Below are positions 5,912 to 13,344 of a stretch of 25,089 nucleotides of DNA, piece after piece; positions within the stretch are counted from its first letter, which is position 1, and every line of letters starts with the position of its first letter. The DNA is from Thermoplasmata archaeon (lineage in GTDB: Archaea > Thermoplasmatota > Thermoplasmata > GCA-020350865). The notes beneath the pieces were generated by a model. The model saw only the letters and a program-made list of their open reading frames with translations, was not told where the DNA came from and did not search any database. Position numbers and translations under genes: made by a program. The DNA lies in contig CP070751.1 of NCBI GenBank assembly GCA_020348445.1, forward strand, positions 3,031,185 to 3,056,273, read 5' to 3'.

Positions 5912-6006
5912 TTTATGTGCAATTGAGATAATTTTCGTATAGGTCAATTGCCCGAAACATGTAAATTAACTACGATGATAATACCCAGAATTCGTTAATT
6001 TCCATA
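5912..6006. repeat. Double-hairpin insert, copy 1 (95 nt)
   Basis: gtgcaattg-N19-caattgccc followed by catgtaaattaac-TA-N19-TC-gttaatttccat. Same length as, and collinear with, 13250-13344. Confidence 0.85.
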
Positions 6007-6026
6007 TGAAGGATATAAGCCCCCTT
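6007..6026 (-). repeat. Copy of the rnpB 3' end (putative att core), 19/20 identical
   Basis: tgaaggatataagccccctt versus tgaaggacataagccccctt at 15394-15413. The distal rnpB tail (aagtgtcgga, cf. aagtgtcggg) resumes at ~5902-5911 beyond the 95-nt insert. Confidence 0.9.
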
Positions 6027-6075
6027 ATTTAATCAAGAAGGGACAAAAGATGTGGGAAATTTTCCTTCATTTTTT
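6027..6075. repeat. Conserved junction arm, homologous to 13365-13413
   Basis: atttaatcaagaagggacaaaagatgtgggaaattttccttcattttt versus atttcatcaagaagtggcaaaatatcggcgaaattttccttcattttt. A degenerate version (aaaatttgggtataaattttcc) follows the 12780 core. Confidence 0.8.
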
Positions 6076-6280
6076 CTTATTTTTGTACCTGGCTATGATT
6101 CTTGTAGATTATTTCATATCATTTTACAGATTCAGTGAAAATATAAATACTTCTTATGTACGGCAAATTAGCTGTCTCGGGCTCTTTTTCTTTCTTTTAT
6201 TTTTTGAATTTCTGGAAGATTCTTGTGGATTGTGTTGATATTTAGGTAGATAATAAAAGGGTCATTTTTTATTCTATTCT

Positions 6281-7621
6281 TCAAGGTATATATTCACAAC
6301 CACCAAATGAATTGATCTTCTCTTCTAACCGGGTCCAAAGATCCATTGCCTCCAAATCAGAAACAGTATACCATCTCTCGAATGTTTTGGCTACATCACT
6401 TTCTTCATGATTCCTACCGGCTGTCATGTCGGAACAATGCTTAGCCAATAGATAATCTGGTAACCATTCAAGGGCAAGTTCATAGACTCTTCTACCGACA
6501 TTTTTGGTTCTTTCATCATAAGGTACGGCGTCAGAAAACCAGGAATTGTATTTTGTTTGGTTAATTAACAACTCTTTTCCGGAATATTGGGGGGTACAAT
6601 GGACAAATGCATTATATGGATCATCCCCATGGCTTAGATACCTTTTAACAGAAACAAAATATGGTAAAGCATGCCCCACACCATTTGGGCGGTGATAAAC
6701 AACCGGGATATTAACAGCCCTTAAAATTGAAATCAAAAAGCCATTTGTTCCGTGACATCCAGCTGTTCTGTGTTGAATACCCCATTGTGGATATCCTCTG
6801 TACAGTGTTCCTTCTACGATCCGAGATATTGGTGGAAATCCTCGATACTGCCATTGATCCTCTACATTTTTAATGGTAAAACCATATAAAAAATGTACCA
6901 GATTTTCCCTGCACCAATCTAATAGATATCCAATTGTGCTTATATGATACTCTGCTAATATACCATTGTCAAGGATGAACGAAATAGTATATTCTGGTGG
7001 TGCAGGTATTGCCCTACCTGCTACATTAGATTCAATTAAATAACCACGAAGTCCAGTTTTGACTAAAGATCCGTCTTGGTAAAATGTATAATTATCATAT
7101 CGTTTAAAGAAATATCTACTATCAAAAAGACGACGAAGTAAAGTGTCGGGATATCTATTTATGGACCATTTCGGAGTGATATTTAATTTGGGTCGGATCA
7201 ATTCAAAAGCTAGGCAATGCCCTACATATGCAATGTAAAGTGACCAAGCATCATTAATGGATAACATGGTAAAAGGATAAGTGTCGTCATCTAAATATTC
7301 CGCAAGTATATTCACTGGAGGATCATGTAATTCTCGACCATTTGTTATCCAACCCCTTTGTATCAGTTCATATTTCATCCGCATTCGTAGACTATCGTAA
7401 CGTAGTGAATACAAAATCATGTCCGCAAGACCTTTAAAAAAATATTTTCTCAGATCTTTCTTCTGATATAGGCGCCATCTCATAAATGGAACTGATCTTC
7501 CCTTATAGTGCTGCCACCGTATGGATTTTGAGATTTTCGAAACATCTAACCATTTTTCCAAGTTCTCTATCTCTCTGTCGACCTTTTTTACAAATTCCAA
7601 CCAATATTCATATCTCGACAT
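6281..7621 (-). CDS. Hypothetical protein with a transglutaminase-like (Cys-His-Asp) motif
   Basis: 446-aa ORF with a GGAGGT RBS before the ATG. AGCHGTNGFLISILRAVNIPV...GHALPYF...HGDDPY fits the G-x-C...LRAxGIP...H...D transglutaminase-like pattern. Confidence 0.75.
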   Translation of the reverse strand: MSRYEYWLEFVKKVDREIENLEKWLDVSKISKSIRWQHYKGRSVPFMRWRLYQKKDLRKYFFKGLADMILYSLRYDSLRMRMKYELIQRGWITNGRELHDPPVNILAEYLDDDTYPFTMLSINDAWSLYIAYVGHCLAFELIRPKLNITPKWSINRYPDTLLRRLFDSRYFFKRYDNYTFYQDGSLVKTGLRGYLIESNVAGRAIPAPPEYTISFILDNGILAEYHISTIGYLLDWCRENLVHFLYGFTIKNVEDQWQYRGFPPISRIVEGTLYRGYPQWGIQHRTAGCHGTNGFLISILRAVNIPVVYHRPNGVGHALPYFVSVKRYLSHGDDPYNAFVHCTPQYSGKELLINQTKYNSWFSDAVPYDERTKNVGRRVYELALEWLPDYLLAKHCSDMTAGRNHEESDVAKTFERWYTVSDLEAMDLWTRLEEKINSFGGCEYIP

Positions 7622-8225
7622 ATCAATACCTCCTCACATTTTTCATTTCAATTGGGCCAATCTCTATTTACCCTTCTCATATTCCTCGAGATCATAGCGG
7701 AATCTAAAATCGTAACTGATTCTGAGTATATAAATTTGTTCCCGTTCTTTTATTTCATTAAATAAATAATGTGTTTGTTACCAGATAGAGCGAGCCAGTA
7801 AATGAGTTTCTGCATAGTAAATCATGTCTCAGTTTATTTTTTCTCTGCTTCCAGTGCAATTGCATCATGTAGTTTTTCTACTTGATTCATTAGGGGTAAA
7901 AGAAGCCAATAAGTCCATCCGACTAAACAATATATGAACATTGTAACACGGTAAATTGATGCCAATCTTAAGATTAGTTCAAATTCCCTTCTAAAAAAAG
8001 AAAATATAATTGCCAAAATAGAAAAAGCTACAGCAGATGGAATACTTGTTTATAAAAACTCTGATTTTATTAAAAAAAAAATAGAAAAAGTATTTGGTTT
8101 AGAAGAAGAATCCAAAAGAAATAAAAGTAAAAGATTTAAATAATTATTTCGAATAAACAGATTTTGGCCATTTTCGAACTTGTGTAGACCATAGATATAC
8201 CATTTATTTTTTTCTAATAGAAAAA

Positions 8226-8304
8226 CGCCCCCAATCCCAAAAACAAAACTTATCGGGTCAGATAGCTGCGATTATGCGAGGAAGGGTGGGTGGGGTTGGG
8301 GGTG
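8226..8304. repeat. Structured ~80-nt junction repeat (element B), copy 1
   Basis: Closing stem cgcccccaatccca / tggggttgggggtg around the conserved core ttatcgggtcagatagctgcgattatgcgaggaaggg. Confidence 0.9.
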
Positions 8305-8341
8305 ATAATTCTAATAGTTTTAATCCTAACTTATTCTCACT

Positions 8342-8353
8342 GTGAAGGGCATA
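8342..8353 (-). repeat. Partial/degenerate copy of the rnpB 3' end
   Basis: gtgaagggcata versus gtgaaggacata (11/12), in a similar position relative to element B as the full copies. Confidence 0.55.
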
Positions 8354-8360
8354 TCTTGAT

Positions 8361-8714
8361 TTAGAAGAATTCCGGAGGGGCAGAGATAGTTATCTGTTCA
8401 ATCGCCTCGGCAATCTCCATGGGAGGCTTAGGCTCTCCCACCATTTTAAAGGGTGGCGTGCCTTTGACCGGTTTTGTAGGTTTCAGCGATACTGCAAACA
8501 ACGACTCAAAAAGATCACGAGGGGCCTTGCATGCCAGACCGAATTCAGTGGCATGCGCTTCGACCCCACGTGAAACAAGATAACGTCTGCACCTTTCGAT
8601 CTCCTCGTGAGGAGGGCGGAACTGATCGATCGTAGATACGCTCGGTTGTTGACCTGATGCGGGTGAACGCAACAGTATATCAAAGGCGACTTCGTCTTCT
8701 GAACGTTTCGACAT
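8361..8714 (-). CDS. Stand-alone protease propeptide-like protein (putative inhibitor/chaperone)
   Basis: 117 aa with a GGTGA RBS. By eye it aligns with the N-terminal prodomain of the upstream S8 protease (FESLFAVSL ~ FEKLFKTRI; IEQITISAPPEFF ~ IEKAYIQHPPIFF). Confidence 0.7.
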   Translation of the reverse strand: MSKRSEDEVAFDILLRSPASGQQPSVSTIDQFRPPHEEIERCRRYLVSRGVEAHATEFGLACKAPRDLFESLFAVSLKPTKPVKGTPPFKMVGEPKPPMEIAEAIEQITISAPPEFF

Positions 8715-8787
8715 TTGAATTCACCCAATGGGTCTCATGCGGAAAGCATGGTGCATTACGAACTTATATCAATAACTCTCTTTCACT

Positions 8788-12402: not shown

Positions 12403-12494
12403 TTATTTCCCTCCTTTTCTATTTGATTTTTCATAAACTTCTTGAAAAATTCTTGGTATCTTTGTTCTAATATAACTACCTCCTCTCAAATACA

Positions 12495-12615
12495 TTCTGA
12501 GAAACGCCCTTCCAAGCGATTCCCTTCCAAAGCTTGAGGGTATAATGTTTTAGTGTCTAATAATTATTTCGGATTTTCATAATTTTTATCGATTAAAAAT
12601 CTGGATAAGAATATG
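12495..12615 (-). promoter_or_regulatory. Shared leader/promoter module (element C), copy 1
   Basis: About 90% identical by eye to 15131-15250. It contains tandem cccttccaa motifs, an imperfect inverted repeat ttcggatttt-N18-aaaatctgga and a BRE/TATA-like cgaaataattatt on the minus strand, upstream of the cargo RBS. Confidence 0.65.
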
Positions 12616-12696
12616 CGCCCCCAACCCCAAAAAGGAAAATTTATCGGGTCAGATAGCCGCGATTATGCGAGGAAGGGTTAGTTGGGATTAGGGGCG
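12616..12696. repeat. Element B, copy 3
   Basis: cgcccccaaccccaa...ttatcgggtcagatagccgcgattatgcgaggaagggttagttgggattaggggcg. Confidence 0.92.
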
Positions 12697-12734
12697 ATGT
12701 GAATTTATTTTCAAACCTAATATGTCTTTCTATT

Positions 12735-12770
12735 GCCCTAAAATAGTACAATACATTTATGATAAGATCA
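12735..12770. repeat. Junction arm repeated at 13205-13240 (32/36)
   Basis: gccctaaaatagtacaatacatttatgataagatca versus gccctaaaatagcacaatgcacttatgatatgatca. Confidence 0.85.
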
Positions 12771-12779
12771 TGTTTGAGG

Positions 12780-12799
12780 TGAAGGACATAAGCTCCCTT
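12780..12799 (-). repeat. Copy of the rnpB 3' end (19/20)
   Basis: tgaaggacataagctccctt, preceded on + by aagatcatgtttgagg (cf. aagatcaagtgtcggg). Confidence 0.9.
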
Positions 12800-12986
12800 T
12801 TCCTCTCAAATGTTAGAAAATTTGGGTATAAATTTTCCCTTTTTTCCCTTTATTTTCGAGATGAGGTAAAAAATATTCTTACCATGCTACATTTTTGTGC
12901 ATATAATCATACCATTTAAATTGTTCTTCAGTTAGTGAGTCACTATTTTTCAGAATCCTGGTATAATGGATTTAAAAGACATGTGA

Positions 12987-13154
12987 TCAGAGCGTTACTT
13001 CGAACTCTTCCTGAATGTCGAGCACAACCTGTTCCAAAATGCCTTCGAAGGTCGGACTCCTGAGCACCCTAACACCTCCCAACTCAGTTTGTATCTTAGC
13101 AATATACGAATCTGGGTTCTTTAAAATCTCGATGCTGCATAGTGATTTTTTCAT
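12987..13154 (-). CDS. 55-aa conserved-looking hypothetical protein (not in ORF track)
   Basis: ATG preceded by GAGGGA. Translation MKKSLCSIEILKNPDSYIAKIQTELGGVRVLRSPTFEGILEQVVLDIQEEFEVTL has protein-like composition. It is the only ORF in the 565-bp unit. Confidence 0.75.
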   Translation of the reverse strand: MKKSLCSIEILKNPDSYIAKIQTELGGVRVLRSPTFEGILEQVVLDIQEEFEVTL

Positions 13155-13249
13155 ATAATCCCTCAAAGTTCTTTAGTAAACTACTGCCTATTTAATATTT
13201 TGTAGCCCTAAAATAGCACAATGCACTTATGATATGATCAGGTATCGGG

Positions 13250-13344
13250 CTTAGGCGCAATTGCGGTGATTAAAGAAAATATCAATAGCGCAGCGCATGT
13301 AAATTAACTATAAGGATAGAAGTTTACGTTCGTTAATTTCCATA
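13250..13344. repeat. Double-hairpin insert, copy 2 (95 nt)
   Basis: gcgcaattg-N19-caatagcgc followed by catgtaaattaac-TA-N19-TC-gttaatttccat. It splits the rnpB-like tail ggtatcggg|tgaagg. Confidence 0.85.

Follow-up and report, generated by a model that had tools for sequence, protein, structure and literature searches.

The stretch of archaeal DNA analysed here raises the question of what three short inserts, each composed of two hairpins, represent and how they came to lie where they do. The stretch, called the window below, comprises 25,089 nt of a Thermoplasmata archaeon (GenBank assembly GCA_020348445.1, contig CP070751.1, positions 3,031,185 to 3,056,273). The genome under study is a single contig of 5.16 Mb, and its nearest public relatives are metagenome-assembled genomes labelled Thermoplasmata archaeon. 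An earlier reading of the letters of the window alone, the original prediction, had noticed the inserts and proposed three models. They could be (a) palindromic MITEs (miniature transposable elements with inverted repeats) of the IS200/IS605 kind, (b) paired protein sites with fixed spacing, or (c) guide-like RNA scaffolds with target-specifying loops. The three inserts, E1 to E3, probably belong to a gene-less mobile family with a unit of ~95 nt, a variant of hairpin-ended, non-autonomous single-strand DNA transposons akin to the PATE and SMR elements of Haloquadratum.

The elements were found at the places originally given, with refined limits of 5912-6007 for E1 (95 nt), 10424-10516 for E2 (93 nt) and 13250-13345 for E3 (95 nt). 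At E1 and E3, one boundary base fits either insert or flank. All three lie on the minus strand, which is the folding strand and the sense of the local transcript. Read on this strand, each element consists of a short lead, hairpin A, a linker, hairpin B and a short tail. Hairpin A has an AT-rich 8-bp stem (AAATNNNC/GNNNATTT) enclosing a 23-nt loop of the form GA...TA and occupies 5963-6001 in E1, 10474-10512 in E2, where a G.T pair forms on the minus strand only, and 13301-13339 in E3. The form described on the plus strand for this right-hand hairpin, stem-c-TA-N19-TC-g-stem, is correct in all three copies, and only the order of the listed N19 sequences needed amending, with the second belonging to E3 and the third to E2. 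Hairpin B has an outer stem near GTGC...GCAC. E1 carries it at 5917-5953 with a 9-bp stem, including one G.A pair, and a 19-nt loop; in E3 it spans 13255-13291. The hairpin B of E2 (10428-10465) can be drawn with a 6-bp stem and a 26-nt loop or with a longer imperfect stem, and its length of 38 nt is about equal to the 37 nt in E1 and E3. The 19-nt left-hand loop is hence a feature of E1 and E3, not of E2 as had been stated for the second copy. At 93-96 nt, the elements are too short to code, and apart from their hairpin stems they lack terminal inverted repeats. An Rfam scan of the window matched RNase P RNA only and gave no match for the inserts.

The folding energy of E1-E3 only modestly beats that of shuffled sequence (z -1.4 to -2.9), and the support for the structure comes from covariation rather than from folding energy alone. 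We built covariance models from ten copies (R1) and from 23 copies (R2), and E1 is the top match of both. At E<=0.001, R2 finds at least 33 copies in this genome. Each of the four other genomes of the genus holds at least 16-38 further copies. The overall tally comes to at least 35 copies in this genome and 13-38 scored copies in each of the four others. Among the candidates scored, R2 had no matches in the only other genome of the order or in 136 further genomes of the class, which represent 63 other genera. All family counts are lower bounds, because scoring was limited to 150 candidates in each genome of the genus and order and to fewer class-wide, and because R2 misses two of the methylase gene inserts described below (M3 and M4). 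A first structural scan, which required perfect stems, underestimated the family. The genome-wide count proposed at the outset thus yielded a multi-copy family across five genomes, with finds to date from a single genus of uncultured archaea of sediments.

Unit length and fold are tightly kept across the family. Nearly all R2 matches are 94-97 nt long, and a subfamily of 76 nt, the Q-type, has a shortened hairpin B. On the folding strand, the lead measures 4-6 nt, the linker 6-11 nt and the tail 4-6 nt. The AT-rich 8-bp core stem of hairpin A is often extended by a lower stem, and hairpin B of ~37 nt often shows the GTGC...GCAC stem. Within the 23-copy alignment, 90.8% of cells hold a pair compared to ~42% with partners slid. 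Such an alignment is fitted to the model and favours pairing, but the margin is nevertheless large. The compensatory stem changes first seen between the copies of the window are real, with 13 of the 16 stem pairs doubly changed among the 23 family members. Loop A measures 23 nt in 22 of the 23 aligned copies, with G as first and A as last base, and loop B holds a loose motif similar to AAT..CC.GA. Free variation in loop length and absent covariation had been named as the findings that would speak against a structured element, and the larger set of copies shows a constant loop A and covarying stems. Pairs are also asymmetric between strands, with 14 G.T against three A.C and 19 G.A against three C.T in the 23 copies. 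The asymmetry indicates folding of one particular single strand, and as subfamily copies are not independent it is only suggestive. Paired protein sites with fixed spacing, model (b), could still describe how a moving protein recognizes the element. The excess of G.T and G.A points to a folded single strand.

Several further groups of copies and look-alikes surfaced during these searches. Q-type copies lie in repeated ~190-nt modules at 1223-1240 kb, 2380-2385 kb and 4283-4288 kb of the genome, and the modules recur many times in what seem to be further cassette arrays. Two identical copies of the P2-type precede the window (genome positions 3027566-3027660 and 3029255-~3029350). The pair sits inside ~200-bp direct repeats bracketing an ATPase gene, and a third copy is found at 4.953 Mb. 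Parts of the P2-type copies read as N. Apparent solo halves of one family copy are artefacts of masked N stretches. Twin hairpins with stems copying a tRNA end adjoin tRNA genes at 224057-224160, 3896485-3896620 and 3899396-3899890. They were seen in the first structural scan, have no R2 match and form a separate family. The family with a 23-nt loop and a 95-nt unit is distinct from these twin hairpins at tRNA gene ends.

The insertion sites in the window show how the elements sit in their surroundings. The RNase P RNA gene lies at 15391-15753 on the minus strand (Rfam RF00373, 184.8 bits), and its 3' end (15391-15413) carries the uninterrupted form of the E1 and E3 target. The last ~20 nt of the RNase P RNA recur at 10595, 12770, 6008 and 13346. 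The sequence CCTTC-A-CCCGAC is unbroken in the RNase P RNA gene and in two copies, both on the minus strand, at 10595-10625 and at 12770-12799, the latter with a left flank common to the E3 site (family D17). In the copies at 6008 and 13346, the target is broken after CCTTC by E1 and E3, respectively. Both of these copies are part of minus-strand fold-backs of the repeat D7 (6008-6084 and 13346-13422, the second 87% identical to the first), and E1 is located at the 3' foot of its fold-back. E2 interrupts a different sequence, the 77-nt repeat D3, on the minus strand. The target context at 10371-10540 consists of a D3 copy cut into 10371-10423 and 10517-10540, and the junctions lack any duplicated base. 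Intact D3 copies are found at 8227-8303, 12618-12694 and 15254-15330, among ~18 copies in the genome. The empty sites within the window bear out both the CCTTC(A/C) flank and the absence of a target duplication noted initially.

The same points have been used repeatedly elsewhere. A copy 98% identical to E2 lies at genome positions 756432-756524, at the same point of another D3 copy. A third E1-type copy of this genome, at 4.06 Mb, is inside another copy of the RNase P RNA end. It is mosaic in make-up, its A half being that of E3 and its B half resembling E1. Two other species of the genus also have E1-type copies at the identical RNase P-end target. The site at 10595 is empty in the window but holds an E1-type copy in one related species (genome G003, locus L003). 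A further E1-type copy of G003 comes downstream of the real RNase P RNA gene, after one small cassette. The real gene is unbroken in all three genomes checked. Subfamilies return to particular sites more generally, namely the sequence of the RNase P 3' end, D3 and the loop B of a different subfamily.

The repeats serving as targets have features of their own. D7-like fold-backs have a 3' arm that repeats the 3' end of RNase P RNA and a 5' arm that is the inverted copy of it. Such fold-backs also occur in relatives (L010:642-696 and G003:C259:2469-2551). The Rfam archaeal RNase P model (RF00373) aligns them end to end, weakly, at 20-31 bits, and they resemble fold-backs copying tRNA gene ends in this genome. 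D3 is a structured 77-nt repeat opening each cassette, with C-rich and G-rich outer arms.

The location of the inserts brings up the possibility of recombination-site modules. In the cassette array that follows the RNase P RNA gene, E1 and E3 are placed at boundaries and E2 lies in the leader of a cassette. The twin hairpins might then be binding and crossover sites of a site-specific recombinase that shuffles the cassettes, with copies spreading along with cassette boundaries rather than by their own transposition. Integron attC sites provide an analogy, as they conserve structure over sequence, fold as a single strand and mark cassette boundaries. An attC site is one imperfect hairpin at the 3' end of each cassette, tied to the IntI integrase and to cargo, however, whereas the copies considered here are twin hairpins, mostly cargo-free, and no integrase was found. 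The exact position of E1 and E3 at boundaries made of RNase P 3'-end copies would be expected of such modules, as would the presence of all six E1-type copies from three species at one sequence, the mosaic copy at 4.06 Mb and the Q-type copies within ~190-nt junction modules of other arrays. Yet most copies are found outside of arrays, some of them in the frame of a methylase gene, in other copies or in cargo-free stacks. Insert-free boundaries are common and include the end of the real RNase P RNA gene. Matches to tyrosine recombinases amount to two weak and partial ones in the genome, and the window contains no integrase. We consider recombination-site modules an unlikely explanation.

Inserts within a gene provide further evidence for mobility. 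A methylase gene of 305 codons, 12 kb before the window (genome positions 3018040-3019330), contains four inserts, M1-M4, of 90-94 nt. M1-M3 share the architecture of E1-E3, with loops of 23 nt and 19-21 nt, and are unrelated in sequence. All four are in sense orientation, and the gene is otherwise without stop codon or frameshift. M3 is precisely absent, by a skip of 93 nt, in two sediment-metagenome runs, in a contig retaining M4. Diverged sediment-metagenome variants lack M2, M4 and M1 by net 90, 94 and 94 nt, and one loose end of a metagenome assembly reads through the M3 and M4 sites uninterrupted. The empty sites of E2, E1/E3 and M1-M3 are clean, with an ambiguity of 0-1 nt. Pairs of empty and filled sites, the absence of which had been named as evidence against a MITE, are hence present within the window, between species and in metagenome contigs. 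The methylase gene with the four inserts is a full copy and belongs to a family with many partial copies, with related loci at 1733747-1736257, 3026182-3026436 and 4960253-4960749. Two methylase paralogs carry an M4-type insert at the same site, each containing a further nested insert, and two C-terminal fragments are uninterrupted.

Four sense inserts in one otherwise open gene suggest an RNA-level alternative. The elements could be mobile mini-introns removed from RNA by a structure-specific activity and spread via reverse splicing or DNA-level homing. The sense orientation of E1-E3 and of copies in a tnpA leader relative to the local transcript fits such an activity, as does the tight conservation of length and fold. 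Outside of the methylase gene, though, almost all copies are intergenic, with gene orientation evenly split (four same, four opposite), and one copy lies antisense between two overlapping genes. Archaeal introns of the bulge-helix-bulge type have two 3-nt bulges around a 4-bp helix at the exon-intron junctions. No bulge-helix-bulge was found at the junctions by inspection and in minimum-energy folds of M1-M3 and E1-E3 with flanks, in a search that was not exhaustive. Known self-splicing introns are far longer than 95 nt. The methylase gene itself belongs to a large set of paralogous copies and fragments, in a region crowded with mobile DNA, removal of M2 yields HPAY where the uninterrupted variant has HPPY, and the M4 site is not clean, with 15 nt replaced. 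Mini-introns therefore appear improbable.

The arrangement of copies relative to each other points to mobility as well. Three R-type copies stand head to tail at 767 kb of the genome with a period of exactly 95 nt, and two other genomes have tandem pairs. Two separate R-type copies each hold a P-type copy in loop B, inserted at the identical point. In two species, a short tnpA variant is preceded by an R-type copy, 48 nt upstream, and the stems show compensatory differences. The same site is empty in this genome, and the leader copies are in the sense of the transcript. The 5' flanks of ~50 copies, taken from five genomes, are rich in pyrimidines. Their consensus is near CCTTY, which extends the CCTTC noticed originally, and most of them follow a CTTY-like preference, with some exceptions. 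The 3' end of the element includes CTT itself, so a copy could act as target for the next, which would explain the tandem arrays. Viral and metagenome contigs, scanned for the palindromic pattern, yielded mostly chance palindromes, with true members in six metagenome contigs only. One R-type copy (G004:C177:1001-1096, locus L049) is inserted exactly where a KaiC-like ATPase gene and the gene following it share an ATGA stop/start overlap, and its ends restore both the stop and the start codon.

Fixed-length loops of nearly free sequence had suggested guide function. On the guide reading, model (c), the two loops would be programmable and specify the target, much like those of IS110 bridge RNAs. 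The six E1-type copies from three species share one target and differ widely in their loops, however, and the two P-type copies likewise have a common target and different loops. We found no complementarity between loops and flanks, and none between the loops (p 0.47). Searching the N19 loops against genome, viruses and plasmids had been proposed as a check and gave no significant match: BLAST of the elements against the genome returned only chance 15-mers for the loops, and no matches of elements or loops were found in phages or plasmids. A bridge RNA or seekRNA is encoded in the non-coding end of an element with a DEDD recombinase, and its loops are complementary to target and donor. Genes of the IS110 type are present in only one of the five family-carrying genomes, the one under study. 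The loops do not specify targets and match nothing else, and we reject the guide-RNA scaffold as scarcely plausible. The fixed loop length is better read as the spacing requirement of a hairpin-binding factor. The loops diverge fast, but the term hypervariable is too strong, as the E3 loop is nearly unchanged at 4.06 Mb, the E1-type loops of two other species are recognizably related and loop B has a semi-conserved motif.

Small elements with paired hairpins are known from several systems. Double-hairpin elements of chytrid mitochondria are small, gene-less inserts of two hairpins with mobility inferred from presence/absence patterns. Unlike the present family, they are GC-rich, shorter, mitochondrial and without fixed 23-nt loops. 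Close counterparts among archaea are the PATEs of Haloquadratum walsbyi, which derive from IS200/IS605-type transposons (PMC3119063). The present family shares with PATEs a non-coding length, the lack of terminal inverted repeats, a palindrome near each end and insertion without target duplication (PMC3119063). Heterogeneous families and strain-specific insertions are further similarities (PMC3119063). PATEs insert next to a short targeting sequence (PMC3119063), to which the CTTY-like preference of most flanks in the present family may correspond. PATE palindromes match those of resident IS605-type transposons, whereas the present hairpins were found on no transposase-bearing relative, and the present family differs in its fixed-length 19-23-nt loops, ~95-nt unit and long subfamily-specific sites. 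SMR-A elements of Haloquadratum are similar in having ~110 bp, no target duplication and no known transposase, and they strongly prefer to insert into other mobile elements at palindromes (PMC3119063). Their terminal inverted repeats are prominent and their copies very much alike, in contrast to the two tandem hairpins and very divergent subfamilies described here. The movement of SMR elements is still termed enigmatic (PMC3119063).

Likenesses extend to elements moved by Y1 transposases. The TnpA of IS200/IS605 acts on strand-specific subterminal hairpins, inserts 3' of a short target and excises seamlessly (PMC5027513). The ends described here have no linked tnpA, a different hairpin form and no demonstrated bias in replication orientation. 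REPINs, which are associated with RAYT genes, are likewise non-autonomous hairpin DNA of ~100 nt and are thought to be moved in trans by a Y1 enzyme (PMC3116915, PMC8266576). A REPIN forms one long hairpin of two inverted REPs, is extragenic, reaches high copy numbers and flanks a single RAYT gene (PMC3116915, PMC8266576), whereas the present family has two separate tandem hairpins and tens of copies, and flanks no Y1 gene here.

The most probable scenario remains that of single-strand DNA transposons moved by a protein supplied in trans. The moving protein would read the two folded hairpins through stem shape, the closing G...A and the fixed loop span, but not through loop sequence. Cutting and rejoining would proceed without copying the target, as in the peel-and-paste reaction of HUH (Y1) transposases, and the CTT-containing 3' end would mimic a target and thereby give rise to tandem arrays. 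Five features appear to fit transposition of the IS200/IS605 kind, namely seamless insertion and loss, strand-specific end hairpins, a 5' target, stacking, and the use of hairpin loops or feet as sites. Each of the five genomes holding the family also contains Y1 transposase genes (5-17 matches each). A short Y1 variant adjoins canonical tnpA at 4214534-4215446 of this genome, at G002:C84:390-883 and at G003:C138:8312-9498, and the pairing recurs in several genomes of the genus. Of the three original models, model (a) fits best as regards non-autonomous elements inserted 3' of a short target without duplication. The specific tie to IS200/IS605 ancestry is unproven, as the ends of the resident IS200-like copies are unrelated. 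The suggested search for partner genes recovered no tnpA with matching ends, and IS110 in one genome only. With no partner linked and IS200-like ends unrelated, we assign the family to a PATE/SMR-like variant of hairpin-ended elements.

A number of observations weigh against transposition by a Y1 enzyme. A Y1 gene is also present in the one genome of the order without the family. Two identical IS200-like copies of 661 bp end in classic short-loop hairpins unrelated to A and B, and loops of 19-23 nt are unlike those of known IS200/IS605 ends. R2 has no match next to the tnpA- and tnpB-like genes here, a scan for a solitary hairpin A flanking a gene gave nothing convincing, and no autonomous relative with matching end hairpins was found. 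Metagenome contigs carrying two copies have ordinary genes between them. A search for Y2 (IS91-type) transposases found nothing, but control genomes were likewise blank, so the search is uninformative. Orientation relative to GC skew shows a trend that is not significant in a genome without clear skew pattern, and orientation relative to neighboring genes shows no clear link, with the four-to-four split mentioned above. The flank preference is loose, with no invariant tetranucleotide. The R-type starts with CATG, and CATG or CATA comes after most of its copies; one copy starting with CTCG has CTCG directly after. These flanks resemble either a duplication of 4 nt or a junction-like target, a misfit with a simple 5'-target rule.

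The CATG and CTCG flanks raise the possibility of ordinary cut-and-paste MITEs, mobilized by a DDE transposase with a short target duplication, which would be CATG for the R-type. Classical MITEs have terminal inverted repeats and a target duplication. The present elements have no such repeats apart from the hairpin stems, and the empty sites of E2, E1/E3 and M1-M3 are clean to within 0-1 nt. The tandem period of exactly one unit, 95 nt, also speaks against an origin by cut-and-paste, and we regard such MITEs as highly improbable. The family may instead be moved by an undescribed, structure-reading enzyme measuring the 23-nt loop and the 95-nt unit and directing every subfamily to a long target of its own, or be removed from transcripts, which would make its members the smallest known mobile introns; either outcome seems doubtful. 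If true, removal from transcripts would keep the four-times-interrupted methylase gene working.

The array holding E1-E3 is flanked by very large, repeat-rich proteins of surface type with GLUG and Ig-like repeats, encoded at window positions 3-5861 (plus strand), 13466-15121 (minus) and 17604-24782 (minus). The cassette genes include a subtilase gene and a gene of the metallo-beta-lactamase fold.

Small hairpin-ended elements that insert without duplication are poorly understood in archaea. For genome annotation, inserts of the kind described here matter because they interrupt both genes and repeats and could pass for introns, small RNAs or guide arrays. The family constitutes an unusually clean data set for finding the enzyme responsible for movement, with exact boundaries given by many empty sites, strong covariation, a fixed loop length and nearly free loop sequence. 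The same data set offers subfamily-specific targets, among them loops of other elements and the RNase P RNA gene end, and a distribution limited to one genus.

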